Positions 2,029-44,159 are shown, numbered from the stretch's first letter. The stretch is 64,000 nt of DNA from Candidatus Methylomirabilia bacterium (GCA_041492755.1 JBGPXN010000002.1:14883-78882), one strand, 5' to 3'. The notes: a model not told the origin generated them from the sequence alone. Numbers and translations: made by a program.

Positions 2029-3849
2029 ATGAAGGGTTATGGGGGGCGGCTGCTGTTCGTGGATCTGGCGCGGGGGGCGTCGCGGATCGAGGCGCTCGAG
2101 GAGTCCGTCGCGCGGGCGTTTCTCGGGGGGAACGGGCTGGCGGCGCGGGTGCTGTACGACCACGTGCCGGCGGGGATCGATGCGCTCGATCCGGCGAACG
2201 CGGTGGTGTTCGCGGTGGGGCCGATCACGGATACGACGGTGCCGGGCAATAGCCGGGCGTGCGTGGTGGCGAAGTCGCCGCTCACCGGGTTGTTCTTCGA
2301 CTCGACGTTCGGCGGACGCTTTCCGGCGACGCTCAAGCGCACGGGGTTCGACGCCGTGGTGCTGCAGGGGCGCGCGCCGGCGCCGTGTTACGTGCTCGTG
2401 ACCGACGCGGGGGCGGAGATCAAGCCGGCGCATGAGCTGTGGGGGCGCACGACGACGCGCGAGGCCGTCAATGCGCTCGTCGCCGCCGAGGGCGCCGACG
2501 CCGACGCGATTGCGATCGGGCCGGCGGGCGAGCACCGCGTGCGGTTCGCGGCGCTCGCGCACTACTGGAAGAACCGCGAGGGCGTCGCCGGGCGTGGCGG
2601 TCTCGGCGCGGTGCTCGGCGCCAAGAACGTGAAAGCGGTCGTGGTCCGCGGCGCGCGCAAGACCGAGATTGCCGATCCCCCCGCGCTCAAGGCGCTGATC
2701 GACGGCACCCGCGCGCCGCTGAAGACGGGTACGCAGGCGCTGTCGACGTTCGGCACGCCGTTCCTGGTCGGCCCGATCAACGCGCTGGGCGGGCTCGGCG
2801 CCTACAACCTGCGCGCCGAGACCTTTGCCGAGGCGCGGGTGATCGGCGGCGAGGACATGAAGACGCACTTCCACGACCGGGACACCACGTGCCTGAAGTG
2901 TCCGGTCGCGTGCGGCAAGCAATACGCGATCCGCGAGGGCGAGTTCGCGGGCACGAAGGCGAAGATGCCCGAGTACGAGACGATCTTCGCGCTCGGTCCC
3001 ATGCTCGGGAACGCCAACCCCGAATCGCTGATCCTCGCCAACGACCTCTGCGACCTGCTCGGCATGGACACGATCTCGATGGGCGTGACGCTGGCCTTCG
3101 TGGCCGAGGCGGTCGAGCGCGGCTGGCTCACCGCCGCCGACATCGGCCTGCCCTTCGGCTGGGGCGACTGGCGGTCGATGTTGAAGCTGGTGGAGATGAC
3201 GGCGCGTCGCGAAGGCTTCGGCGACCGACTCGCCGAAGGCGCCTGGCGTCTCGCGGCGTCCATCAATTCGGAGGCGACCCGGGCGGTCTACGCCGTGAAA
3301 GGACTGGAGCTTCCCGCCCACTCCGCGCGGGCGCTCAAGGGCATGTCGATCGGTTACGCCACGGCGACGCGCGGCGGCAGCCATCACGACACGCGCCCGA
3401 CGCCCCAGTACGCGGCCGGATTCGACCGGAAGAGTCCCGACGGCAAGCCCGCGTTCGCCGCGCGCAGCCAGCACTTCACCGCCGTGGGCGATTCGCTCGT
3501 GATGTGTCGCTTCACCTCCGAGCGCGGCTTCGGCCTCTTCGTGGGCGAGCCGTACGCGGCGATGGTGCGCGCGGTGACCGGCTGGGACGTCACCGTCGAG
3601 GAGCTCGAGCGGGTGGGCGAGCGCATCATCAATCTCGAGCGCCTCTTCAACGTGCGCGAAGGCGTCCGGCGCGCCCAGGACGTGCTGCCGTGGCGGGTGA
3701 TGCACGAGCCCATCACCGAGGGCCCGTCGGCCGGGATGTACTGCCCGCCCGCCGAGCTCGACGCGATGCTGGACGAGTACTACGCCCTCCGCGGGTGGGA
3801 CGGGGACGGCGTTCCCACCCCCGCGCGCCTCTCCAGCCTCGGCCTCTAG
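2029..3849 (+). CDS. Aldehyde:ferredoxin oxidoreductase (AOR) family, tungsto/molybdopterin enzyme
   Basis: ORF 1999..3849, with the likely start at ATG 2029 (MKGYGGRLLFVDL). It has an AOR N-domain-like sequence (FLGGNGLAARVLYD, VGPITDT, KSPLTG), a CLKCPVACGK Fe-S motif and a long AOR catalytic-domain-like C-terminus. Confidence 0.9.
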   Translation: MKGYGGRLLFVDLARGASRIEALEESVARAFLGGNGLAARVLYDHVPAGIDALDPANAVVFAVGPITDTTVPGNSRACVVAKSPLTGLFFDSTFGGRFPATLKRTGFDAVVLQGRAPAPCYVLVTDAGAEIKPAHELWGRTTTREAVNALVAAEGADADAIAIGPAGEHRVRFAALAHYWKNREGVAGRGGLGAVLGAKNVKAVVVRGARKTEIADPPALKALIDGTRAPLKTGTQALSTFGTPFLVGPINALGGLGAYNLRAETFAEARVIGGEDMKTHFHDRDTTCLKCPVACGKQYAIREGEFAGTKAKMPEYETIFALGPMLGNANPESLILANDLCDLLGMDTISMGVTLAFVAEAVERGWLTAADIGLPFGWGDWRSMLKLVEMTARREGFGDRLAEGAWRLAASINSEATRAVYAVKGLELPAHSARALKGMSIGYATATRGGSHHDTRPTPQYAAGFDRKSPDGKPAFAARSQHFTAVGDSLVMCRFTSERGFGLFVGEPYAAMVRAVTGWDVTVEELERVGERIINLERLFNVREGVRRAQDVLPWRVMHEPITEGPSAGMYCPPAELDAMLDEYYALRGWDGDGVPTPARLSSLGL

Positions 3850-3897: not shown

Positions 3898-4715
3898 ATG
3901 CATCCGTTCATCCACCCGGGATCATCGTCGCCAGCGCGCTCGGCGCTCTCGTCATCTGCCTCATCGTCGTCCGTTACGGTCTCACTCCGTCGACGGACGC
4001 CGAATCCGACGCCGACGTCCGAGGCCGCCTGCTGGTCCGTTTCGGCCACGCGATGGCCGCGGTGTGCTTCGCCGTCACCGCCATGCTTGCCACCGTCGCC
4101 CTCGTCCACCAGGGCCAGGTCGTCGTGCCGGCCGCCGTACCCGGCGAGCTCGAGCAGAATCTCGCCGAATTGACCGACCAGGCGCGCGCGGCCGAGCAGC
4201 GGATAGGCCCCGTGGAGGGGCGCGTCGACCGCGTGGAGACGACGCTTCGCAAGGTCAGCGAGGACCTCACCCTGACGTCGACCCGGTTGCGTCAGGTCGA
4301 GCGCTTCGTGGCGAGCGCCGACCGCGAGCGGGTCACCCCCGCGCCCCGCCCACCGGAGGCAGCGCCAGCCGCGCCGCGCATCGAGCCGCCGCCCACTGTC
4401 CCACGCCCGAACGTCGAGCCCCGGCCCGCCACCGCGACGCCTCCGCCGCCCACCCGCTACAACCGTCCGCCCGCGCTCGCGCCCGCGCGACCGGACTCGT
4501 CTCGAACCATGGCGCCCGCGGCCGGCGCACGTCGCCCCGAGGCGTCGGCCGCACCCAGCCCGCCGGCCGCCGCGTCGGTCGAGATGCCCGAGAAGCTGCG
4601 CGAGGACTGGAAGGTGATCCGCCAGGGATTTCGCGAGGCGGGCACGGAGATCAGGAACTTCTGGGCCCGCCTGAGCCGTCGGGCCAGCGAGGTGATGGAG
4701 AGCGACCGCCGCTGA
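3898..4715 (+). CDS. Membrane-anchored coiled-coil / Pro-rich hypothetical protein, apparent -1 frameshift near 3918..3920
   Basis: The tail of ORF 2439..4715 gives two TM helices (IIVASALGALVICLIVV, AMAAVCFAVTAMLATVALV), a coiled coil (LEQNLAELTDQARAAEQRIGPVEGRVDRVETTLRKV) and a Pro/Ala-rich region. The only strong RBS plus ATG (GGAGGGAGacgtATG, 3898) is one frame off and would join if GGG 3918..3920 were GGGG. An in-frame alternative start is ATG 4053. Confidence 0.5.
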
Positions 4716-4745
4716 GGTACCATCGAGCGACGGTCCACGCGGCCC

Positions 4746-4821
4746 GGGCGGATAGCTCAGCTGGGAGAGCGCGGCCCTTACAAGGCCGAGGTCGCAGGTT
4801 CGATCCCTGCTCCGCCTACCA
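4746..4821 (+). tRNA. tRNA-Val (anticodon TAC)
   Basis: 76-nt cloverleaf: acceptor GGGCGGA/TCCGCCT, D arm GCTC-AGCTGGGA-GAGC, anticodon arm CGGCC-CTTACAA-GGCCG, T arm GCAGG-TTCGATC-CCTGC, encoded ACCA end. Confidence 0.95.
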
Positions 4822-5203
4822 CTCAATCGACCAGCCACTACGCTTCGCCGGAGCCGGGGCGGCGCGGCGATCGGGGTTCGTGGTGTCAGCTGCCGGCCAA
4901 TGGAGACGATCGACGCCAATGAGATGCCCCGATGAGCAGCGCGTTCAGGAGCATCAGGCGCCGGGACATCGGTCGAGTCCCCACCCCGACGGAGGTCATC
5001 GGTGAGCGCTGTGTCTCAGCGCCCACCGATGCCCTGTAAAGCAACCTGCGATCAGTGACCGCGCGGTGCGCCCTACCTTCTGTATGCGGGAACCGTACGG
5101 GAGCGTGCTAGAAATGTGATGCAGACAGGCCGGGGCCGCGCGAGGAGCCGTCTGCGCGAGCCTTCGGCGCGCAGCACATCAAATCCTTCCACGGGAGGGA
5201 CGC

Positions 5204-5698
5204 ATGGCCAACATCTGGATCCCCGAGGTATCCATCGCGGAGAAGATCTTGCGATCGGTGGCGATCTACGCGTTCCTGTTGCTCGCCTTTCGTTTCACGG
5301 GCAAGCGCCAGGTCGGGCAGCTCACGCCGTTCGATCTGGTTGTACTGCTCATCATCTCCAATGTCGTGCAGAACGCGGTGATTGGACCCGACAATTCCCT
5401 CGGCGGCGGCGTGATCGGTGCCCTGGCGATCTTGGGGCTGAACCGCGCGGTGGTCGAGGTCACCTGGCGGTGGAAGAAGGCCCGGCGCCTGCTCGAGGCT
5501 GCCCCAACCGTGCTTGTGCACAACGGGCGTATCCTCCACGATCACTTGGCGCAGGAGCGGATCACGCTCGACGACCTCCATGCCGCGCTTCGCCGCGCGG
5601 GGGTGGCCACCGTCGCCGATGTGCGTTTTGCGATGCTGGAGGAGAACGGCGGTATCAGCGTGGTCCCACGTGGGGCGGTCCCACCAGCCCAGTCCTAA
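5204..5698 (+). CDS. DUF421/YetF-like membrane protein
   Basis: 164-aa ORF with RBS GGGAGGGA upstream. It has N-terminal TM helices and the motif FRFTGKRQVGQLTPFDLVVLLIISN typical of YetF/DUF421 proteins. Confidence 0.75.
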   Translation: MANIWIPEVSIAEKILRSVAIYAFLLLAFRFTGKRQVGQLTPFDLVVLLIISNVVQNAVIGPDNSLGGGVIGALAILGLNRAVVEVTWRWKKARRLLEAAPTVLVHNGRILHDHLAQERITLDDLHAALRRAGVATVADVRFAMLEENGGISVVPRGAVPPAQS

Positions 5699-5875
5699 AG
5701 TGAGCTCCACGTCGTCAGCCTCGAAGTCGACCCGGCGGCCGGGTTCCTCATGGCCAGCGTCGAGGGGCTGGGGGCCGAGCACGTCCGCGGGATATCCACG
5801 GCGTTCTTTCAGTCCGCCTCACCGGGCATCCGGAGGCACCGACGCACTGGAGCCTGCAACAAGGGGAGGGTGTCG

Positions 5876-6457
5876 ATGCCAGAGGATCCGGAGATCCAGA
5901 CCGACGACCTGCAGGAAGCGATCCGGAGGGAGCTCGACGGTGAAAGCGGCGCGCTCATGCGGCGCATCGCTCTCACCACGGCCATCCTCGCCGCGCTCGC
6001 CGCAATCGCCGCCCTTCGGGCCGGGGCCACCGTCAACGAAGCCCTGATCCTGAAAACCGAGGCCACGCGCCTGCAAGCCGAGGCATCCGACCAGTGGGCC
6101 TACTACCAGGCCAAAGGAGTGAAGCAAGCCGTTCAGGAGGCATCGAAGTCGTCGTGGCGGGCGATCGGGAAAGAGCCGCCGGCTGCCTTTGCCGCCGAGC
6201 AAGCGCGCTACGTTGCGGAGCAGACCGACATTCAGAAAAAGGCCCGGGAGCTCGAACGGCAGCGTGACGAGCGATCCGCCGAGGCCGACCACCTCTTTCG
6301 CCGTCATCACGGGTTTGCGAACGACGTCGCGATCTTCCAAATCGCCATCGCGCTCGGCGCCGTCGCCGCCCTGACGAGACTCCGCCTGGTCTGGTATGGA
6401 TCGCTCGCCCTTGGAGTGGCCGGCATCATCGTCTTCGTCGTCAGTGTCCTGCGCTGA
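5876..6457 (+). CDS. DUF4337-like membrane protein
   Basis: ATG 5876 preceded by AAGGGGAGGG. It has a TM helix, then ASDQWAYYQAKGVKQ and a C-terminal TM pair, as I recall for DUF4337. Confidence 0.65.
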   Translation: MPEDPEIQTDDLQEAIRRELDGESGALMRRIALTTAILAALAAIAALRAGATVNEALILKTEATRLQAEASDQWAYYQAKGVKQAVQEASKSSWRAIGKEPPAAFAAEQARYVAEQTDIQKKARELERQRDERSAEADHLFRRHHGFANDVAIFQIAIALGAVAALTRLRLVWYGSLALGVAGIIVFVVSVLR

Positions 6458-6507
6458 CTCGGCGGGCGGCTATGGCGATCCGAAGGGACAGGACGACAGT
6501 GCCCGCG

Positions 6508-7122
6508 TCACTTCCGCTCGTCGTGGTGCCGGTAGCCGGGCATCTGTGCGCACTCGGCGTGACCCGCGAGCTCGACCCCCCGCTCGACGGCTTTCCCGAA
6601 GTCTTCGTTCAGCAGCGCCACGTTGATGCGCGGGCGAAAATAGTCCGCCCAAATGAATTCGGCGAACGGCTTCTGGCTCTTGTCGTAGCCACCCGCGTAG
6701 CGAACGTAGGCCGCCAGGCTGCGGTAGGGATCGTCGCGGAGCAGTTTCACGTGATGCGGTATCAAGTCGTAGAGTTGCTTGTGGCCCTGTTCGTCGTAGG
6801 GATGAACCCAGTTCTGGCGATCCATCTCGCGCCAGAAGTCCTGAAGGTCGAGGTCCGAGAGGTCCGCCACGATTTCCAATGACGCGCCGTCGATCTCCAC
6901 TTCCCACAGCGCGCGGCCCAGATGATGATGATCGATGACGAAGTACTTCTCATTGGGTCCCGTCACCACCGGGATCGGGTGCTCGGCGAGGAACTCCTTC
7001 AATCGGTGATGATGGTCACTGATCTTCGCGAGATGCGTCTTTTTCTCGTGAACTTCGATCATGCCGACGGTGATCTGAGTCGGCCGCAGGTGGTTGACGG
7101 CAATGCCGTGGATCGTTGCCAT
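6508..7122 (-). CDS. ParB-like nuclease domain protein (ParBc_2-like)
   Basis: 204-aa ORF. The N-terminal HLRPTQITVG motif and overall layout resemble the putative ParB-like nuclease family. Its GC content is markedly lower than the surroundings. Confidence 0.6.
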   Translation of the reverse strand: MATIHGIAVNHLRPTQITVGMIEVHEKKTHLAKISDHHHRLKEFLAEHPIPVVTGPNEKYFVIDHHHLGRALWEVEIDGASLEIVADLSDLDLQDFWREMDRQNWVHPYDEQGHKQLYDLIPHHVKLLRDDPYRSLAAYVRYAGGYDKSQKPFAEFIWADYFRPRINVALLNEDFGKAVERGVELAGHAECAQMPGYRHHDERK

Positions 7123-7207
7123 CTCCCCATCTCCTTGAGCTGATTCGGCTCCCTCCGAACCAAAGGTACACGACCACGGGCGGGCGGTTGAGGGCCGGCG
7201 CGCCCGC

Positions 7208-8398
7208 TTACTGCGTCCGCCCGCGCATGGAGGCCGGCTGGCCCGGGAGCTTGAGCTTCTTGCCGGTGTCGGTGATCGTGGTGCCGTCCACCTTGAGGAT
7301 GGACACGTTGCTGTCCGTATAGTTGCCGACGTAGAGGTACTTGCCGTCGGGGCTGAAGACCGCGCCCTCGGGCAGGCCGCCCACCTCGACCTCGCCCACC
7401 TTGGTTACCTTCTTGTCCTCGATCTTGAGCACGGCCAGGCTGCCGTTCCTCTTGGTGTTGAACCACATGCTCTTCGGCACGCTGGCCCCACCCAGGAGCA
7501 CGGCCACGGCGACGTCACCCTTGGGGCTGATCACAAAGCCCTCGGGGGCATCCCCCACGACCACGCGGTCGATGACCTTCGGCGGGTTGTTCCCGAGGTC
7601 GATGATGCTGACGGTGTCGATGTGGCCGTCCGGCGCGCCGGAATTGCCGTTGTCCGCGCTGATGGCGATCCGGCCGTTGGGCGTGACGTCGATGTTATAG
7701 GGCCAGAGGCCCACCGGCATGTCGTGCTTGGTATAGGTCACCTTCTGCCCGTTGATCTCGAGAAGCGCGATCTTGTGCGCGGCGAACTTGGTGGCGAGCG
7801 CGCGCTTGCCGTCGGGGGTGATGGCGACGGAAGCGACCTCGTCCCCCATCGCCACCGTGTCGATGAGCTTGACCTCGTTGCCCTGGATGGAGAGGACGCT
7901 GATGGACTTGTCGTTCCGGTTCGCGACCAGGGCCAGGTCCCCGGCCCGGTTGATCGCCAGCCCCGAGGGCTGCTTGCCGATCTCGACGGTCGCGATATGA
8001 CTCGGCGGGCTCGCCTTCAGATTGAAGACGTAGAGCTTGGTGTCGGGTGCGGGCTTCCAGGCGGCCCCGTCCGGAACCCAGTCCACGGAGTTCGCCACGA
8101 TGGCCAGGCGCTCGTCGGGGGTGATGGCGAGATTGGTCGGGGGGCCGAAGATCGAGTTCATCAAGGGGAAGCTCACGAGGATCTTCGGCGCCTCGCGGTC
8201 GGTGATGTCCACGACGGAGATGGTGTCCTTCCCCGGCGCGACGAATTGCCGCTTGCCCTCCGCGTCGAAGACGACCTTCGCGTCGTTGCCGATGATCATC
8301 AAGTCGGCGTGGGCCGCGGGCACGAGCGCCGTCAGGCCCGCGACCAGAACCAGGAGCAGTTGGGGGAGGACGACGATGCTGCGGCCGTGAGGTGTCAT
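7208..8398 (-). CDS. Secreted YVTN/lactonase-type beta-propeller repeat protein
   Basis: The real start is probably ATG 8398 (RBS GGAGGAG), giving the signal peptide MTPHGRSIVVLPQLLLVLVAGLTALVPAAHA. It has repeated blades of the form xPxGLAIxPDGKxLYVAN (ITPDERLAIVAN, INRAGDLALVAN, ITPDGKRALATK, FSPDGKYLYVGN). Confidence 0.7.
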   Translation of the reverse strand: MTPHGRSIVVLPQLLLVLVAGLTALVPAAHADLMIIGNDAKVVFDAEGKRQFVAPGKDTISVVDITDREAPKILVSFPLMNSIFGPPTNLAITPDERLAIVANSVDWVPDGAAWKPAPDTKLYVFNLKASPPSHIATVEIGKQPSGLAINRAGDLALVANRNDKSISVLSIQGNEVKLIDTVAMGDEVASVAITPDGKRALATKFAAHKIALLEINGQKVTYTKHDMPVGLWPYNIDVTPNGRIAISADNGNSGAPDGHIDTVSIIDLGNNPPKVIDRVVVGDAPEGFVISPKGDVAVAVLLGGASVPKSMWFNTKRNGSLAVLKIEDKKVTKVGEVEVGGLPEGAVFSPDGKYLYVGNYTDSNVSILKVDGTTITDTGKKLKLPGQPASMRGRTQ

Positions 8399-8590
8399 GG
8401 GAGGCTCCTCCTTGAGCGTTCTGGTCAAGATCATCGCGGGCTCTCGCCCGCCGCCGGGGGCGATGGTGGCACAAGCGCCTGCCGTCTGTATAGTAGGCGG
8501 CGCCGGAGATCCTGCTCGGCTTCGGCCCCGCGCTGTCGAAGCTGACCGACTCCGCCGCAGCGCCGCCGACCAACACGACGCACAACAGCA

Positions 8591-8812
8591 GTGCACTACG
8601 ACGATCACCCGCCACCCCCCTTCCATGTTCAATACGGCGACGACAGCGCGACAATGGATATCGACACCATGCGGATTACTGATGGTTACCTTCCGCCCCG
8701 AGTGCTCGGTTTTGTGACCGAATGGGGCGTGCGCCATCGGGCGCTGCTGCGCGAGAATTTTCGTCGCGCCCTGGAACACAGGGCGCCTGAACTCATCCCG
8801 CCCCTGGAATGA
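8591..8812 (+). CDS. DUF4160-family protein, N-terminally truncated or diverged copy
   Basis: HYDDHPPPPFHVQYGD...VTEWGVRHRALLRENF parallels the full copy at 9200..9460 but lacks the MPxVSRFxGIxVxM N-terminus. It has a GTG start. Confidence 0.55.
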   Translation: MHYDDHPPPPFHVQYGDDSATMDIDTMRITDGYLPPRVLGFVTEWGVRHRALLRENFRRALEHRAPELIPPLE

Positions 8813-8813
8813 T

Positions 8814-9071
8814 GTGCCGATGATCAAGCGCGTCGTGGAAGTTCGACCGCTCGGCGGTTATCGCCTCTTCATCAGGTTTGATGATGGCGTGCAAGGCGAA
8901 GTCGACATCGCGTCGTTCGTCCGCTTCGACGGCGTCTTCGAGCCGCTCCGCGATCCGGCCCGCTTCGCCGAAGCATTCGTCGATCTTGGTACGGTGTGCT
9001 GGCCCAACGAGCTCGACCTCGCTCCGGAAGTGCTGTACGAGAAGGTCTCGGGTCGCCCGCTCTCGGTCTAG
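8814..9071 (+). CDS. DUF2442-family protein
   Basis: 85-aa ORF starting 2 nt after the preceding stop. VVEVRPLGGYRLFIRFDDGVQGEVD...CWPNELDLAPEVLY matches the DUF2442 pattern and the paralog at 9453..9746. Confidence 0.7.
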   Translation: MPMIKRVVEVRPLGGYRLFIRFDDGVQGEVDIASFVRFDGVFEPLRDPARFAEAFVDLGTVCWPNELDLAPEVLYEKVSGRPLSV

Positions 9072-9199
9072 CTGACCCACCTCGCCGCGTCCGTTCGGAC
9101 GCGTCTCTTCAAGCGCGCCACCAGCGACCGGAACTTCTGGCTGTATCGATGATTGGACATTCTCAGCGAACGCGCGGTGCCCTACGGTCTCCCACGGCC

Positions 9200-9460
9200 A
9201 TGCCGCAGGTGAGCCGCTTCCGTGGAATCAGCGTGGAGATGTACCACGACGAGCACCCTCCGCCCCACTTTCACGTGTACTACGCGGACGAGAGCGCGAT
9301 AATCGAGATCGAGACGATGCAAATCATGGGAGGGCGATTGTCACCGCGCATACATCGGCTGGTCACCGAGTGGGGCCGCCGCCGCCGTGCGCAGCTACGA
9401 GAAAACTGGCGGCGCGTTGTCGCGCACGAGCCGCCGCTCTGGATCGAGCCTGATGAGTGA
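9200..9460 (+). CDS. DUF4160-family protein
   Basis: ATG 9200. MPQVSRFRGISVEMYHDEHPPPHFHVYYADESAIIEI is the canonical DUF4160 N-terminus. Confidence 0.75.
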   Translation: MPQVSRFRGISVEMYHDEHPPPHFHVYYADESAIIEIETMQIMGGRLSPRIHRLVTEWGRRRRAQLRENWRRVVAHEPPLWIEPDE

Positions 9461-9746
9461 CTGGTTGAGGACCGTCGTCGAGGTCAAGCCACTGGATGGG
9501 TACCGGGTCTTCTTGAGATTCGATGACGGCCTGGAAGGCGAGCTGGACCTCGAAGTCTTTCTCATGCCGTTCAAAGGTGTATTCGCGCCGCTCCGTGACC
9601 TCGCGCGTTTCCGCGAGGTCTTCGTTGATTGTCACACCGCATCGTGGCCGAACGGCGCCGATATCGCTCCGGAGGTCCTGTACTCCCAGGTCTCCGGTCG
9701 GCCGCTCCGCCGGCCGACCCACACTAAGGCAGAAGGTGGCCGATGA
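9453..9746 (+). CDS. DUF2442-family protein
   Basis: ATG 9453 overlaps the upstream stop (ATGAGTGA). VVEVKPLDGYRVFLRFDDGLEGELD...SWPNGADIAPEVLY. Confidence 0.75.
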   Translation: MSDWLRTVVEVKPLDGYRVFLRFDDGLEGELDLEVFLMPFKGVFAPLRDLARFREVFVDCHTASWPNGADIAPEVLYSQVSGRPLRRPTHTKAEGGR

Positions 9747-9938
9747 GGTAGAAGATCGCGCTGCGGAAGACGGACGAAGGTTACAGCGTGTCGGTCCCCG
9801 GCCTGCCGGGCTGTTTCGCAAGGTGCCACAGAGGATGAAGCCCGTGCGAACGTCCGGGACGCAATCCAGGAGTATCTGGCGGCTCGCGACCAGCTTCTGG
9901 ATGGGGCTACCGTGCGCGAGGTCGAAGTCACTACGTAG
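9743..9938 (+). pseudogene. HicB-like antitoxin pseudogene (in-frame TAG at codon 3 plus frameshift)
   Basis: Reads ATG AGG TAG AAG ATC... = MR*KIALRKTDEGYSVSVPGLPGCFA, then shifts frame at ~9812 into GATEDEARANVRDAIQEYLAARDQLLDGATVREVEVTT*. Together these reconstruct a typical HicB N-domain. Confidence 0.65.
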
Positions 9939-9964
9939 GCGGGTCCGGTATTACCGACACGAAC

Positions 9965-10312
9965 TCAGCGCGATCCGCTGTGAGTCTCCGCCAGCTCGAC
10001 GAACCGGCAGAGCGCGTTGATGAGCCGCATCTGATCCACCGTCCTCGCCCGTGACTCCAGCAGCCGTGGGCTTGCCACCACGTACGCCAGACACCGCGCG
10101 CGCGACACCGCCACGTTGAGGCGGTTCCGGGAAAGGAGGAACTCGAGACTGCGCGGCACGTCCTCCGCGCTCGACGTCGCCATCGAATAGAAGACCACCG
10201 CCGCCTCGCGCCCCTGGAACTTGTCGACCGTGCCGGCCTGAACGCGGCAGAGTCCGGCGGCATCCAGAGCCTGGCGCAGCCGGCGCACTTGCGCGTTGTA
10301 CAGCGCGACCAA
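9965..10312 (-). pseudogene. 3' fragment of an SF1 (Upf1/DNA2-like) helicase
   Basis: Only the last ~115 codons are present: YNAQVRRL, TVDKFQGREAAVVFYS, NRLNVAVSRAR (helicase motifs V/VI region). A TAG lies upstream in frame and there is no N-terminal ATPase domain. Confidence 0.65.
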
Positions 10313-10543
10313 TAGCTCCCGGCATGTTCTGCTACCGGGTTGCTACCAGACCACGCGGGACCACGCGGCATCACGCGAGTCACGGACTACCCCTGATCGT
10401 TGGTGTTCTGCGGGGTTTGAGGTGTCGTGGGGCGGCGTGGTGTGGTCCGAAGAGCAACGGCGGGCACCGCCGACTGATGGTGCGCCCAACCCGGCGTTAT
10501 GCTCACTCTATGTAACTCTCGATCGCTCGGTACGAATCCACCA

Positions 10544-10595
10544 GGGCGGACTTACAAGGCCGAGGTCGCAGGTTCGATCCCTGCTCCGCCTGCCA
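10544..10595 (+). pseudogene. Truncated tRNA-Val copy (acceptor 5' half fused directly to anticodon loop through the 3' end)
   Basis: GGGCGGA + CTTACAAGGCCGAGGTCGCAGGTTCGATCCCTGCTCCGCCT + GCCA. This is identical to tRNA-Val positions 1-7 and 32-72. The D arm and 5' anticodon stem are missing, and the discriminator is G instead of A. Confidence 0.8.
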
Positions 10596-10624: not shown

Positions 10625-11110
10625 ATGGCACGAACGAAACGGGGAAGGGACTTTCTGGAGTGGCTCGCGCGATTGGTGACGGACTGGACGGGGCGGTCGG
10701 CGGCGTTCGCGCTGGCGCTCGGCACGATCGCCGTGTGGGGACTGACCGGGCCGCTCTTCGGCTTCTCCGACACGTGGCAGCTCGTCATCAACACCGGCAC
10801 GACGATCGTGACGTTTCTCATGGTGTTCCTGATTCAGCGCGCGCAGAACAAGGACGCGCTGGCGATCCACCTCAAGCTCAACGAGATCGTGGCCGCGCTC
10901 GAAGGCGCCAGCAACCGGCTCATCGCCGTCGAGGATCTGACCGAGCACGAGATCCAGGTCCTGCACGCGCACTTCCGCCAGCTCGCCGTCATGGCCAAGC
11001 GTGACGACGTGCTGACGCGGTCGCATTCGGTGGAGGAGGCCGAGCGGCGGCACGTCTACAAGCGGCGGCGCCGAGCGGTCGCCGACAAGGGCGAGGCGGC
11101 GAAGTCCTGA
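10625..11110 (+). CDS. Low-affinity iron permease family membrane protein
   Basis: ATG 10625. GPLFGFSDTWQLVINTGTTIVTFLMVFLIQRAQNKDALAIHLKLNEIV matches the conserved core of the low-affinity iron permease family (PF04120-like). Confidence 0.7.
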   Translation: MARTKRGRDFLEWLARLVTDWTGRSAAFALALGTIAVWGLTGPLFGFSDTWQLVINTGTTIVTFLMVFLIQRAQNKDALAIHLKLNEIVAALEGASNRLIAVEDLTEHEIQVLHAHFRQLAVMAKRDDVLTRSHSVEEAERRHVYKRRRRAVADKGEAAKS

Positions 11111-23084: not shown

Positions 23085-24232
23085 ATGTCCAGACTGCTCC
23101 CTATCGTGGTCGCCCTCGTCATCGTCCACGGGCTCGTGCTGGCGTCGCTCCGCCCGTACGGCGGCAATCTCTCGGCGATGATGCGCATCGGCGAGAGCGA
23201 GGAGCGCGAGCAGGTCGTGCGCGAGTACTTCCAGCCGGGATTCGTGATCTTCACCGGCGAGGGTGGGTACGACGGTCAGGCCTACTACTACGTCGCGATG
23301 GACCCGCTCGCGACGAAGGGGCTGTATCGCAATCCCTATCGGTACCAGCGCATCCTCTATCCGCTCGTGGCCCGGGGGTTGGCCCTGGGCCAGCCGCGGC
23401 TGCTGCCGCTCACGCTGTACCTCGCCAACCTCCTGGCCCTCGCGGCCGGCATGGCCGTGATGATCACGTTACTCCGCGGCCAGGGACGGTCGCCGTGGTG
23501 GAGCCTGTTCGCCGGCCTCTGCCCGGCCGCGATCATGACGATCCAGTACGATTTGCCCTCGCCGCTGGCGATCGCGTTGCTGCTCGGCGCGGTCGCCGCC
23601 TACGGGCGCGACAGAGTCGTCGTCGCGAGCGGGCTCATCGCGCTCGCGTTTCTCACGCGCGAGGACGCCGTGATGGTGCTGGTGCCGCTGCTGGCGTGGG
23701 AGGTGTGGGCGCACCGCTCGCGGCGTCGGGCGGCGATGCTCGCGGCGTCGGTGACGCCGTTCGTGGCGTGGCAGGCGTTCGTGACGTCCCGCCGGGGGGC
23801 GTGCCCGCCGCCGAGTCATTGGCCGTTATCCAGCCGGTCCCGTTCGCGGGTCTCGCCGGCTACTTCGCGAGCCTGCGCGGCAACGCGGGCGCGACGGCGT
23901 GGCTCAAGCACGCGGCGGTGCTTGCCGTCGCGTGCTTCCTGCTCGCCGTGGGCGTGATCGTCCTGCGCCGGCTTCGTCGCGCGCCGCACCTCTACTACGT
24001 CCTGGCGGCCGCGTACCCGCTGCTCGCGGTCTTCACGGTGCCGTCGCAGTGGGACAACTACAACGGCCTGCTGCGCCTGTTCTACGGGCTCTTCCCGTTC
24101 CTGACCCTCGCCTACGGGGTCGAGCGCGCGCGCTCGGTACAGTACGCCGTGTTCGCCATCGCGGTGTTGAGTATGCTCGCCGCCCTGCGTGTGCTGCTCG
24201 TCAGTCCGGTCTACCCGTTCAGGATCGCCTGA
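23085..24232 (+). CDS. Polytopic membrane protein (glycopolymer/glycosyltransferase-like), apparent -1 frameshift in G6 run 23794..23799
   Basis: ATG 23085. It has many TM helices and a GEGGYDGQAYYYVAMDP motif. The frame switches from the 22833 ORF to the 22934 ORF exactly at CGGGGGGC, and one extra G restores ...QAFVTSRRGGVPAAESLAVIQPVPFAGL... Confidence 0.6.
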
Positions 24233-36413: not shown

Positions 36414-36491
36414 GGGCTCGTGGTGCAGCCTGGTTAGCACACTGGACTGTCAATCCAGAGGCCGCGGGTTCAAATCCCGTCGAGCCCGCCA
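36414..36491 (+). tRNA. tRNA-Asp (anticodon GTC)
   Basis: Acceptor GGGCTCG/CGAGCCC, D arm GTGC-AGCCTGGTTA-GCAC, anticodon arm CTGGA-CTGTCAA-TCCAG, T arm GCGGG-TTCAAAT-CCCGT, encoded GCCA end. Confidence 0.9.
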
Positions 36492-40266: not shown

Positions 40267-40370
40267 CGCCTCGCACCCGATTTCACGATTGGGTGGCGCG
40301 GGGTCTCGGCGGCATCCCGCTTGCTCCCGCAGTCCCACACTTGCGCCGATGCGGGGCGCAAATCGGGACG

Positions 40371-40610
40371 ATGGGAGGGAACGTCGTGGTTGGCAGCTTC
40401 ATGCTCGGCATGATCGTGGGCGGTGCGGCCGTGTGGTTCTGGGGCGAGCAGATGCGCGAGTACGTCGACGACAAGACGTGGGCGATGCGTGCTCGGGCGG
40501 CCGAAGGGTTGGGGGCGGCGGCTGACACCTTGCAGTCTGCCCGAGAGACGGTCGAGGGTGGGTTGTCCGGTGCCTCGCCTGGGCCGGGTGGGCGGGAGAC
40601 TGCCGCCTGA
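40371..40610 (+). CDS. Small membrane-anchored hypothetical protein (YtxH-like layout)
   Basis: ATG 40371. One TM helix (VVVGSFMLGMIVGGAAVWFW) followed by a helical tail. Confidence 0.4.
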   Translation: MGGNVVVGSFMLGMIVGGAAVWFWGEQMREYVDDKTWAMRARAAEGLGAAADTLQSARETVEGGLSGASPGPGGRETAA

Positions 40611-40629
40611 CCTCTCGTTGTTTCGGGCC

Positions 40630-40692
40630 GGGGTGCGGCATCGACTCCGAGCGACTTCGTCTGCGCGGAGCGAGGGGTCGATGCCGCACCCC
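40630..40692. repeat. Palindromic element (16-bp perfect arms) between convergent genes
   Basis: GGGGTGCGGCATCGAC (40630..40645) and GTCGATGCCGCACCCC (40677..40692). The 31-nt loop contains a nested CTCCG...CGGAG stem. Likely a bidirectional terminator or REP. Confidence 0.7.
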
Positions 40693-40803
40693 CGACCCGG
40701 GCAAGCGGCTCACCCCGTCACTCGGCGCCAGCGGCCATGCGCGCATGGAAGGGCCGCTCCCGCGGGACTCACCGGAACGGGGGTGGGTATCAGCGCCGGT
40801 CGG

Positions 40804-41241
40804 TCAGCCTGTGGAGCCGAAGCCTCCGGCGCCGCGAGTGGTGGACGGGAGTTCGTCGACCGGGGTCAGCGTGACGTGTTCGATGCGCTGGACGACGAGT
40901 TGGGCGACGCGATCGCCACGCGCCACCGCCACCGCGGCGCGAGGGTCGTGGTTCACCAACAGGACTTGGACCTCGCCGCGGTAGCCGGCGTCGATGAGGC
41001 CGGGAGCGTTGAGGACGGTCAGGCCGTGGCGCAGGGCGAGACCGGAGCGGGGAAGGACGAAGCCGGCGTGGCCGTCGGGGATGGCGATGGCGAGGCCGGT
41101 GCGGACCAGGGCGCGCGCGCCGGCTTCGATCGTGACCGACTCCGCGGCGTAGAGATCGAGGCCGGCATCCGATTCGCGGGCGTAGGCCGGGAGTGGTAGC
41201 GAGGGATCGAGCCTCGTGACGAGCACGCGGAGCGGGCTCAC
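40804..41241 (-). CDS. dut: dUTP diphosphatase
   Basis: GTG start. [28 protein letters not shown] and [10 protein letters not shown] are the dUTPase motifs. Confidence 0.9.
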
Positions 41242-41322
41242 GGCGAGCGCATACTAGCACGCGGTCTTCGTGTGCCTTGCGTGGCCTCGCGCCACGCGGG
41301 AGCGTCGAACGTCGTGTCCACG

Positions 41323-41571
41323 TCCGCGCTCGCCGGTGTGACCGTGCTCGATCTCGCCACCTTCCTCGCGGCCCCGTGTGCGCCATGCTGCTCGGTGAAT
41401 TCGGCGCCGACGTCATCAAAGTGGAGCACACGTCCGGGCGCGAGAGAACATCGTGTGGATGGCGGTGGAAGACCTCGGCGTGCTGCTGATGCCGGGCCGT
41501 CCCAGCCGGGGCAGGACAACGAGGAAATCTACGGAGGGCGGCTCGGCCTGGCTTTCGCGGCGAGGGCCGTT
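41323..41571 (+). pseudogene. Remnant of a family III CoA-transferase (CaiB/BaiF-like) with frameshift and large internal deletion
   Basis: LAGVTVLDLATFLAAP (one frame) continues as VCAMLLGEFGADVIKVEH in the -1 frame (a missing G at ~41369..41372). About 60 nt later only the C-terminal-like GQDNEEIYGGRLGL remains, so ~300 codons are absent. Confidence 0.55.
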
Positions 41572-43534
41572 ACTTCTCGGAGCCCGGACGCTCCTGGTCG
41601 GTGGCGACCACCATCTCGGACAGGCGCTTGAGCACTTCCATGGTGAGCTCGGGACGGTTGCGGATCAGCCACTCCAGCCGCTGATACTTCAGCACCAGCA
41701 GCTCGGTGTCGTTGGTGGCGATGGCGGACGCGGACCGGGCGGCCTTGCGGAAGAGCGCCATCTCGCCGAAGAGGTCGCCTTCGCCATACTTGGCCAGCGT
41801 GCGCTCCGAGCCGTTGAAGCGCTTCTTGATCTCGACCACCCCGGAGTGCACCACGTACGCCTCGCCCTTGGCGTCGTCACCTTCGTTGAAGATCACGGTC
41901 GACGGCCCGTACTTCCGGCGCTCGACGTCGCCGAGCGTGAGGTTCTTGTAGATCTCGAGCCCGATCGACGGCAGGTGGCCCTTGGACTCGACCGGCAGGC
42001 GCGCGTTCGTCCATCCGCCCAGTCCGCCCTTGAGGATGCGCGCGCCCGTGTAGCCGGTGGCGTGCAGCTTGTGGACGACCTTCTCGCTCGTCTGCTCCTC
42101 CGGGCTCGTACAGTACGCCACGATCATCTGCTTCTTGTCGGCGTCGAGATTGAAGCGGCCGGCCAGCGCCTCGTCGGGATCGATGCGGATGGAGCCGGGC
42201 AGCTTGAGCGGACTGGTGTCGTAATCGCTCTGGGTGCGGACGTCGACGAGCAGCGGGTTCGCGCCCTTCTCGATCGCCGCGATGACCTGCCTGGGGAGGA
42301 TGCGGAATCGGTTCTTCCACCAGCGCCGGCCCCACATGCCGCCGTAGACGCCCCCGCTCAGCAGCGTCACGCCGAGGGTTGCCAACGCCCACGGAAACGG
42401 CCGTGGCGGCGGGTTCTTGACCTTCTCCTCCGCGTCGTCGAGGGCGCGCTTGACGTCGGTCAGGTTCGGCAGCAGCTTGTTGGCTTCGCCGATCTTGGCC
42501 GCCGCCGTCGCGTAGCGCTCCCCGAACAGCGCGGTAACGCCCGCGGCCCACGGTTCGTTGAACCGGCTGTCGCCGGGCTTCTGGACGGGGGTGTCGGCGA
42601 GGAATTTCAGGACGTCCTTGGCCGGGATCAGGAAATTGAAGCCCTGCACGATGGCGCCGCCGCTCTGCGACAGCGACACGAACGTCAGGACGGCGGCCAC
42701 CGCGGCCTCGTTGTCGATGGCGGGCCCACCGCTGTTGCCGTGGGCGGCCGGCGCGTCGGACTGGATCACGTCCTGCCCGATGGCGTCCGTCTGGAACCCG
42801 GACACGGCCCCGTTCGTGGCGGACGACTGGATCGCCACGCTCTGGTTCAGCAGCTCGTTGGAGAGGACGACGCCCGGAAAGCCGAGGATGTGGAGGGGAT
42901 CGCCGATCTTCGCGGCCTTGGTCGAGATCGGCAGTGCGGGATAGACACCGTCCTTCACCTTGAGCAGGGCGAGGTCGCGTCCCGAGTCCTTCAGGGGCTG
43001 GTTCGCCGTGTCGAGGTAGAGCGGCGGGCTGAACTTCTTGACCTCGGCCTCGAGCCGGGTCCCGTTCGAGAGCAGCACGCTGATCTGCGGTATGGGGGTG
43101 AACTTGGCGTTCGCCAGCGCGCGGTCACCGGCGTCCCGCCGGATCTGATCTTCGAGGTCGGGGCGCTGCCCGCGCATCAGGCCGCGGGCGCGCAGCACCG
43201 GCTCCACGCACGCCTGATCCACCGCGCTCTTCTTGAGCTCGTGGGTGACCCAGGGTGGTAGGCGATGCGCCGGGTCGACGACATGGGCGTTGGTGACCAG
43301 GTAGCCGCGGCCGTCGACGAACCAGCCGGTGCCGGTTTCCACGAACGGCGCCGGCTTCACCGTCGTCGGCCCCTGGCCGCAATTCATGGTGATCTCGGCG
43401 TCGACGCGGGTGGTGATGAGCGCGACCGCCGGCTTCGCCCTGAGGATAGCTTCCTGGACGCTGAGAGCGAGCGCGGGGAGCGGCGCGGCGATCCAGGCTA
43501 GCGCCAGCGCACTCTCGAGCAACAGCCGCTTCAT
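41570..43534 (-). CDS. Multidomain protein: secreted trypsin-like Ser protease - TM - rhodanese - cyclic-nucleotide-binding domain
   Basis: ATG 43534 gives the signal MKRLLLESALALAWIAAPLPALA. The S1 triad context is present (TNAHVV, DLALLKV, GNSGGPA), followed by a TM segment (WALATLGVTLLSGGVYGGMW). The rhodanese domain has LVDVRTQSDYD...IVAYCTSPEE and the cNMP domain has FNEGDDAKGEAYVVHSGVVEI...GEGDLFGEMALF...RSASAIA. Confidence 0.8.
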   Translation of the reverse strand: MKRLLLESALALAWIAAPLPALALSVQEAILRAKPAVALITTRVDAEITMNCGQGPTTVKPAPFVETGTGWFVDGRGYLVTNAHVVDPAHRLPPWVTHELKKSAVDQACVEPVLRARGLMRGQRPDLEDQIRRDAGDRALANAKFTPIPQISVLLSNGTRLEAEVKKFSPPLYLDTANQPLKDSGRDLALLKVKDGVYPALPISTKAAKIGDPLHILGFPGVVLSNELLNQSVAIQSSATNGAVSGFQTDAIGQDVIQSDAPAAHGNSGGPAIDNEAAVAAVLTFVSLSQSGGAIVQGFNFLIPAKDVLKFLADTPVQKPGDSRFNEPWAAGVTALFGERYATAAAKIGEANKLLPNLTDVKRALDDAEEKVKNPPPRPFPWALATLGVTLLSGGVYGGMWGRRWWKNRFRILPRQVIAAIEKGANPLLVDVRTQSDYDTSPLKLPGSIRIDPDEALAGRFNLDADKKQMIVAYCTSPEEQTSEKVVHKLHATGYTGARILKGGLGGWTNARLPVESKGHLPSIGLEIYKNLTLGDVERRKYGPSTVIFNEGDDAKGEAYVVHSGVVEIKKRFNGSERTLAKYGEGDLFGEMALFRKAARSASAIATNDTELLVLKYQRLEWLIRNRPELTMEVLKRLSEMVVATDQERPGSEK

Positions 43535-43707
43535 GGCCTCGAACCCTACCACGGAGAGCCGGTGTGTTGCTAGGTTCGTCGGGCGCGGCGCGTCCGGCCG
43601 GTCCCGGGGTGACGGCATCCTGACGTCCAGCGTCAGCCGATGACACGCTGACGCGACGTCGAGCGGCGGGATCCGAGCCGCCCCGCCCGAAAGTCGGCGG
43701 TTCCTCC

Positions 43708-44133
43708 GTGCAATTCGCCACGCGGTCTTGGCATGCTGGCTGCTACCACGGGTCCGGCGTGAGAGGCCAACGCGGATTCACCCTGATCGAGCTCATGATC
43801 GTCGTCGCGATCATCGGGATCCTCGCGTCGACCGCGGTGCTCGTTTTCGCGAACGTCACGAATCGAACACGGGGCGCGAAAGCGCAGGCGGACGTTCGAT
43901 CGCCGTCGACCGCCATCGTCGTGTCCAGCGCCCACGTGTCGGACTTTCCGCCGACGCTGGATGCGCTCACCGCCGTCGCCACCAACGCCCAGGGGTTGAC
44001 GGCCGGACCGTTCCTGGGCACGGTCCCGGTGCCGCCGGAGGGATGGGGCGCCGCCTATGGGTACGCGACGGCGGTGACCGGCACCTTCACCATTTCCGCC
44101 GCGGGCGACAACACGACCGTCTCCGGGCCGTAG
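43708..44133 (+). CDS. Type IV pilin / pseudopilin with prepilin N-terminal methylation motif
   Basis: GFTLIELMIVVAIIGILAS class III signal. The start is uncertain (GTG 43708 or GTG 43759). Confidence 0.75.
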   Translation: MQFATRSWHAGCYHGSGVRGQRGFTLIELMIVVAIIGILASTAVLVFANVTNRTRGAKAQADVRSPSTAIVVSSAHVSDFPPTLDALTAVATNAQGLTAGPFLGTVPVPPEGWGAAYGYATAVTGTFTISAAGDNTTVSGP

Positions 44134-44159
44134 ACCTCGGCGGGGGCAGCGCCCGACCG

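Follow-up and report, generated by a model that had tools for sequence, protein, structure and literature searches.

What separates the valine tRNA gene of a Candidatus Methylomirabilia bacterium from a second, partial copy of the same gene 5.7 kb downstream, and how did that DNA come to lie there? The stretch considered here (the window, 64,000 nt, in whose numbering all positions are given) belongs to an 86-kb contig of a 4.97-Mb, 329-contig assembly, and it holds an intact tRNA-Val(TAC) gene followed by a block of 5,729 bp that ends in a direct repeat of the 3' part of the tRNA. An earlier note, made from the sequence alone, had described this arrangement as a decayed integrative island. 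The explanation preferred here, with a probability of roughly 80%, is that the block at 4822-10550 is the remnant of DNA that was integrated site-specifically at the anticodon loop of tRNA-Val and later lost its integrase, so that it now resembles a cis-mobilizable element (CIME).

The repeat at tRNA-Val and the DNA between its copies

The repeat consists of the following parts, named after the left and right attachment (att) sites, attL and attR, to which they would correspond:

4746-4821, plus strand: tRNA-Val(TAC) gene (ARAGORN; Rfam RF00005, 68.5 bits)
4777-4821, within that gene: its 3' part, tRNA positions 32-76, the identity block on the attL side
10551-10595, plus strand: displaced 3' fragment of tRNA-Val, the identity block on the attR side, 44/45 identical to 4777-4821

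The repeat search recovers what the earlier note had claimed, a repetition of the last 45 nt of the tRNA gene, which opens with the anticodon loop (its initial base being position 32) and runs to CCA, with a sole mismatch at the discriminator base, which is A in the gene and G in the copy. The copy is a 3' fragment that lies downstream on the same strand as the gene, and both its orientation and its side fit the criteria of Islander. It is not called as a tRNA by ARAGORN or Rfam. No other copy of the 45-nt sequence occurs in the assembly beyond the repeat pair, and no further tRNA-Val fragments, such as older tandem islands or internal att scars, are found in the window at up to 8 mismatches in 45. 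Two independently assembled genomes of this species (99.8-99.9% identical) hold the whole block with both repeats, and three shorter contigs hold its right-hand end; because block and repeats recur in this way, an assembly artefact is unlikely. All contigs that encode the exact iron permease found to the right of the block, or the exact upstream protein, come from the same species and carry the block. Two Logan contigs that stop inside the tRNA, at position 29, are attributed to branching of the de Bruijn graph where the tRNA sequence is conserved, and are uninformative on the island.

The block also stands out by its composition. Measured against 5.7-kb windows across the genome, its GC content is 0.648 versus 0.697±0.016 (standard deviation), which corresponds to the 0.24th percentile, and in tetranucleotide distance from the genome it ranks at the 98th percentile, so that the k-mer and GC comparison proposed in the earlier note finds it deviant by both measures. 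GC content varies inside the block, from 0.60 to 0.68.

No integrase or excisionase is left, as the earlier note had stated. The tyrosine recombinase family PF00589 is found at 11 places in the genome, none of them on the 86-kb contig, and several such recombinases are encoded elsewhere. The left non-coding arm of the block (4822-5203), in which a search for integrase remnants had been suggested, gives no Pfam match at E≤1 in six frames, the same is true of the right arm (10313-10550), and tblastn with the integrases of two relatives (G009 and G013) returns noise only.

Recurrent breaks at the same tRNA in related genomes

The family comparison covers 159 genomes including the source genome (genomes are labelled G and loci L, the source genome being G000), and the locus comparison covers the 30 relatives in which 1 kb or more can be read past the orthologous tRNA-Val. 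By the named homologues of its AFOR gene, which neighbours the tRNA, the source genome belongs to Rokubacteria/Methylomirabilota. To the left of the tRNA the gene order is conserved in relatives: a TPR protein, AFOR, a small hypothetical gene and tRNA-Val(TAC), the tRNA following the hypothetical gene after 30 nt here as in relatives. This shared order of AFOR, hypothetical gene and tRNA puts the 5' half of tRNA-Val at its ancestral place. The sequence right after the tRNA is different in almost every genome. The earlier note had held that a block shared by all relatives, with native composition and no repeat, would speak against an island; none of the block genes follows tRNA-Val in any of the 30 relatives (30/30), which carry other DNA there instead, and the composition deviates as described above. 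In the nearest relative (AFOR 91%; a 41-kb contig from the same genus), other DNA likewise follows the tRNA, and the contig ends 3 kb on. The contigs of the metagenome-assembled genomes of many relatives end 0-3 kb after AFOR or tRNA-Val (L049, L061, L063, L064, L095, L099, L100, L102, L108), as would be expected of metagenome assemblies if the DNA past the tRNA varied between strains.

Four of the 30 relatives carry a 3' repeat of their own tRNA-Val, with the tRNA always downstream of AFOR and the repeat starting at tRNA positions 29-32:

G009: 48-nt repeat, starting at tRNA position 29, 5.4 kb downstream
G124: 42-nt repeat, starting at tRNA position 30, 1.4 kb downstream
G118: 48-nt repeat, starting at tRNA position 29, 4.9 kb downstream
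G060: 45-nt perfect repeat, starting at tRNA position 32, 3.9 kb downstream

Since the repeat of G060 matches the different T arm of G060's own tRNA, these repeats were made in place and not carried in. An integrase is found in the block of G009 only, split into two open reading frames (ORFs) and located near attR, and there is none in G124, G118 or G060. Blocks of different genomes have no arms or cargo in common.

Two further loci are broken at the same part of the tRNA. In a 1.2-kb metagenome contig, Ga0184633_10151733 (L127), which is possibly a chimeric assembly, positions 1-330 are 82% identical to 4452-4783 and include tRNA-Val positions 1-38, after which unrelated DNA begins; the break falls exactly after the anticodon loop, the tRNA is not restored, and a terminator-like hairpin and helix-turn-helix/toxin-antitoxin-like genes follow. 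In G017:C99 (L052), two pieces of tRNA-Val, at 3088-3121 (tRNA positions 8-41) and 7125-7174 (tRNA positions 26-76), flank a 4-kb insert with a 1125-aa ORF and overlap over the anticodon stem-loop, while an intact tRNA-Val follows 2.5 kb on, at 9676-9751, at the contig end. Fragments of the 5' part of tRNA-Val are also seen upstream of the gene in L051 and L058.

Together, the repeats of the relatives, the break in L127 and the split in G017 point to the anticodon stem-loop of tRNA-Val as a recombination hot spot, and this gene is, judging from the compared sequences, a recurrent integration site across this family of Rokubacteria. The identity starts at position 32 here and at positions 29-32 in relatives, and L127 breaks after position 38, which places the putative crossover at the canonical anticodon site.

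The proposed course of events would be as follows. A tyrosine integrase would have carried out the strand exchange inside the 7-nt anticodon loop CTTACAA (tRNA positions 32-38) or close beside it, and the incoming DNA would have supplied a new 3' half that completed a functional tRNA at 4746-4821 (attL), while the original 3' half would have been pushed 5.7 kb downstream to 10551-10595 (attR), where it would no longer be under selection and its discriminator base would have changed since. The whole block may have been delivered by one element. The integrase and any excisionase or transfer genes would have been lost afterwards, most probably through a deletion at the right end that would also have removed the 5' 90% of a helicase gene. 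A loss at this end is suggested by the sharp cut of the helicase gene 239 bp from attR, and the integrase of G009 lies near attR too. Further decay would then have given rise to a hicB pseudogene and a shortened DUF4160 gene, the end state being a mosaic of cargo and toxin-antitoxin-like genes that is bracketed by att sites and has no recombinase.

Gene content and the origin of the block

Gene content was assigned by Pfam, tRNAs by ARAGORN and Rfam, phage families by PHROGs and defence systems by PADLOC. The block and the first gene beyond it comprise the following features:

4822-5203: left non-coding arm, 382 nt, GC 0.665, between tRNA-Val and the DUF421 gene
5204-5698, plus strand: DUF421/YetF membrane protein gene, cargo (PF04239, E=1.6e-18)
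5750-6457, plus strand: DUF4337 membrane protein gene, cargo (PF14235, E=7e-37)
6508-7122, minus strand: ParBc_2 (ParB-like nuclease) gene (PF08857, E=3.5e-56)
7208-8398, minus strand: gene for a secreted beta-propeller protein, lactonase-like (PF10282 and other propeller families; N-terminal hydrophobic signal-like segment)
8591-8812 and 8814-9071, plus strand: first pair of DUF4160 (5'-shortened) and DUF2442 genes (PF13711, E=1.3e-10; PF10387, E=1.7e-16)
9200-9460 and 9453-9746, plus strand: second pair of DUF4160 and DUF2442 genes (PF13711, E=8e-17; PF10387, E=2.8e-13; gene calls in conspecific contigs)
9743-9938, plus strand: HicB-like antitoxin pseudogene with an early in-frame stop and a frameshift (joined reading PF15919, E=1e-9)
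9965-10312, minus strand: helicase 3' fragment, the last 115 aa of a gene of about 1100 aa (PF13087, positions 115-193 of 195)
10313-10550: right non-coding arm, between the helicase fragment and the 3' tRNA copy
10625-11110, plus strand: low-affinity iron permease gene, the first outside the bracketed block (PF04120, E=9e-50)

Every gene of the block, from DUF421 to the helicase fragment, had already been listed in the earlier note and is confirmed by Pfam, and the ParB-like gene, singled out there for its lower GC, has the lowest GC content in the block (0.602). The GC content at third codon positions (GC3) of the DUF421, DUF4337 and ParBc_2 genes is at the 8th-16th percentile of the genome's genes (DUF421, 0.83, 16th percentile), and the propeller gene and helicase tail are less deviant. 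The left arm is unique in the genome and has no counterpart in the compared loci. In the right arm, a 133-nt non-coding sequence at 10330-10462, which includes 10-bp repeats with CACGCGG, recurs once on another contig of this genome, at 77% identity (G000:C144:7484-7614), and in none of the 158 other genomes of the family; there is no tRNA close to that second copy, and no Rfam match is found.

The cargo genes have different affinities. The best DUF4337 homologues in the family are 66% identical and occur in two genomes of another genus, the remaining ones (≤41%) representing a distant paralogue. ParBc_2 is found in 1/159 family genomes, the source genome only; its closest homologues with long enough contigs are 65-68% identical and are isolated genes in unrelated surroundings, on contigs that also encode porins, and no conserved gene cluster was found around ParBc_2 homologues in other organisms. 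The beta-propeller gene is 92% identical in amino acids and 91.6% in nucleotides to a copy in G051, from another genus (7209-8425 compared with L116, G051:C62), with homology that does not extend past the borders of the gene. The AFOR proteins of the two genomes share only 82% identity, and the difference suggests a recent transfer of this single propeller gene within the family. The hicB pseudogene is collinear with an intact hicB gene in G013, which converges on the helicase 3' end there likewise.

The helicase tail is 80-91% identical in amino acids to the C-termini of full-length proteins in 43 other family genomes (44/159 including the source genome) and about 90% identical to those of G013 and G017. 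The homology ends at 10311 in every alignment, and the lost 5' 90% of the gene is absent from the whole source assembly. The full-length relatives are always encoded elsewhere in their genomes and combine PD-(D/E)XK, RNase H-like and superfamily 1 (SF1) helicase domains, with weak similarity to MkoA (Mokosh); typically they are followed by toxin-antitoxin genes such as HicB, BrnT and AbiEi (L079, that is G013:C34 9974-13264, and L080-L088). The protein of about 1100 aa may be a defence protein. The block itself was considered as part of a defence system and rejected, the weak MkoA-like similarity of the helicase being the sole match and no complete system being found by PADLOC. The PHROGs matches of the block are solely to families of unknown function (the DUF4160/DUF2442 proteins, the propeller and the helicase tail). 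No remnants of a relaxase, coupling protein or type IV secretion system (T4SS) are found in the block, nor are phage structural, lysis or replication genes or their remnants, so that it does not classify as a prophage remnant.

Because the affinities of the cargo genes differ, the block is made up of pieces with different histories; judged by homology, it is a mosaic at the level of single genes and bears little resemblance to a coherent relic of one element. Its right end is truncated by deletion or replacement. The earlier description of an att-type island holds in the placement of the repeats, the deviant composition, the accessory cargo, the missing integrase and excisionase, and an erosion that is visible at the right end in the hicB pseudogene and helicase fragment.

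The bracketed block is the tRNA-proximal part of a larger, genus-variable interval between tRNA-Val and tRNA-Asp(GTC). This interval measures 31.6 kb here (tRNA-Asp at 36414) versus 0.7-11.6 kb in nine relatives (L040, L048, L050, L051, L054, L057, L096, L097, L098), and synteny resumes only past tRNA-Asp, with homologues of the window genes at 40293-44960. Between 4821 and 36414 are found the iron permease gene, an NXR-type operon and genes for alanine dehydrogenase, Usp, a sigma-54 activator, acetyl-CoA synthetase, a TPR protein and a 1638-aa FecR-domain protein. In L040 (G013:C24 1024-2325), a 407-aa integrase ORF (PF00589) terminates directly beside the 3' end of tRNA-Asp and is followed by RadC and further accessory genes, and by this evidence the neighbouring tRNA-Asp appears to be a second integration site in the family. 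A "tRNA-Thr(GGT)" called by ARAGORN at 23718-23798 (81 nt) was rejected as an att target, being probably a false positive in GC-rich, coding-looking DNA with no tRNA-like features.

Several points weigh against the reading of the block as an integrated remnant. The empty site predicted in the earlier note, with tRNA-Val directly followed by the iron-permease gene, was not found: none of the relatives and metagenome contigs searched joins tRNA-Val to the sequence right of 10595, an exact-pattern scan of metagenome contigs (T arm plus right flank) gave 0 matches, and a scan with the upstream protein yielded L127 alone, whose broken tRNA-Val offers no empty site either. Such a site may be present only in very close strains. 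The iron permease occurs in 14/40 relatives but never adjoins tRNA-Val, and from this gene onward the flank is not conserved at the locus, so that the original host flank cannot be demonstrated. The kind of element cannot be named, because no phage, conjugation or replication genes are found among the block proteins (Pfam, PHROGs, PADLOC). The discordant gene affinities, with homology stopping at gene borders, fit several events at least as well as one element. Moreover, an integrase is missing from four of the family's five bracketed blocks, which is a striking coincidence if all of them are "decayed". Finally, the heptamer GGGCGGA directly before the repeat (10544-10550) equals tRNA positions 1-7, a match that a plain att duplication does not predict. 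It can also be aligned to tRNA positions 24-30 (5/7 with one 1-nt gap), which would extend the identity block to about the start of the G017 fragment (position 26). With the heptamer, the 52-mer at 10544-10595 equals the tRNA minus positions 8-31 and folds as an acceptor/T-arm minihelix of -19.9 kcal/mol, no better than shuffled sequences (z = -0.71). A match to positions 1-7 before the repeat is absent in all four relatives' repeats, and here it is probably coincidental.

A less probable alternative would refine the preferred explanation without excluding it: the block could have built up through several events and never have been a single element, the region from tRNA-Val to tRNA-Asp being a plasticity zone that gains DNA again and again through successive integrations at the regenerated tRNA, homologous recombination anchored on the tRNAs, and small insertions and deletions. 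The 45-nt repeat would then be the attR of one, possibly old, event, and most of the content would have arrived or been replaced later. The excess length of the interval, with synteny only past tRNA-Asp, and a flank after tRNA-Val that differs in almost every genome are in line with this, as are the heterogeneous GC content of the block and the origins of its genes: ParBc_2 from outside the family, the propeller close to G051 and confined in its homology to the gene borders, helicase and hicB 90% identical to G013 and G017, and DUF4337 closest to another genus. Nevertheless, only one tRNA-Val fragment is detected in the window, and therefore no internal att scars of separate integrations; at 98% identity the two repeats have hardly diverged, so that a very old bracket enclosing much younger content is disfavoured; and a mosaic cargo is normal for a single island that circulates among related hosts.

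It is unlikely that the block is a still-mobilisable cassette, moved in trans by an integrase encoded elsewhere, or in cis after a neighbouring integration in the manner of a CIME, which is defined by the retention of attL and attR and the loss of integration and transfer genes (PMC5704250). The two att-like copies are nearly intact (44/45), the five bracketed blocks of the family are all small (1.4-5.7 kb) and four of them have no integrase, and several tyrosine recombinases are available elsewhere in the genome; on the other hand, no circular junction or empty site appears in any assembly, the pseudogenes and truncated gene at the right end are signs of neglect, and blocks of different genomes, having neither arms nor cargo in common, give no sign of a shared cassette family. 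Improbable too is a broader form of this idea, in which the tRNA-Val(TAC) gene after AFOR would be a capture site for small integrase-less cassettes inserted and exchanged in trans by integrases from elsewhere, and the block a live or recently live array. It is hinted at by the sizes of the five blocks, four of them without a recombinase and one with a split one, by the near-perfect att copies, and by a propeller gene far more similar between genera than core genes are.

Least probable is that the copy is a tRNA pseudogene, the downstream one of two tandem tRNA-Val genes having lost positions 8-31 while the intervening DNA had nothing to do with integration: the heptamer and the minihelix fold of the 52-mer would suit it, but the fold is no better than shuffles, the heptamer aligns to positions 24-30 as well, four relatives carry 3' fragments of the same kind from positions 29-32 with no 5' acceptor match, the flanks of the tRNA gene and of the copy are unrelated and positions 8-31 are absent, neither Rfam nor ARAGORN calls a tRNA on the copy, and the DNA in between deviates in composition and is lacking in relatives.

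Significance and comparison with known systems

The decayed tRNA-linked island is textbook biology, and taken alone the block, as an ordinary immobilised remnant of this type, matters little. To our knowledge, almost nothing is known about mobile elements in the uncultured soil phylum Rokubacteria/Methylomirabilota. The locus would provide an integration hot spot mapped at single-base precision to the anticodon loop of tRNA-Val(TAC), the first one so precisely mapped in this uncultured family, and two defined att sequences on which integrases of Rokubacteria could be tried. Additionally, the interval between tRNA-Val and tRNA-Asp holds an NXR-type molybdoenzyme operon, and its variability between genera bears on whether this operon was horizontally acquired.

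Among known systems, the E. coli elements CP4-57 (at ssrA) and KpLE2 (at leuX) are cryptic, defective prophage-like tRNA islands with an integrase beside the tRNA and recognisable phage genes. The block is like them in being tRNA-linked, partly decayed and rich in toxin-antitoxin-like genes, and unlike them in having neither an integrase nor recognisable phage genes.

A closer parallel in geometry is given by the tRNA-gene (tDNA) islands mapped by Islander, which uses as its signature an intact tDNA together with a fragment of the same gene (PMC4383910). In that collection, 3760/3919 islands have a 3' fragment and 2083 (about half) an anticodon-centred "A" att site (PMC4383910, Hudson, Lau & Williams 2015). 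The block shares with these islands the intact tRNA, the same-strand 3' fragment downstream, the 45-nt identity from anticodon loop to CCA, the deviant accessory DNA and the reuse of the same tRNA in related genomes. It differs from them in having no integrase gene in the interval, for which Islander's filter would reject it, in containing no phage or conjugation genes, and in being small (5.7 kb) and mosaic.

The CIME comes from the biology of streptococcal integrative and conjugative elements and integrative and mobilizable elements (ICE/IME), and denotes an element that keeps attL and attR after losing its integration and transfer genes (PMC5704250). A CIME derives from an ICE or IME, whereas the block holds no relaxase, coupling-protein or T4SS remnant that would show such a descent, and it belongs to another phylum, Methylomirabilota/Rokubacteria. 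Like a CIME, it keeps what by sequence are attL and attR, 98% identical, with integration and transfer genes gone, at a tRNA 3' end where elements can accrete. The block may for these reasons be called CIME-like.

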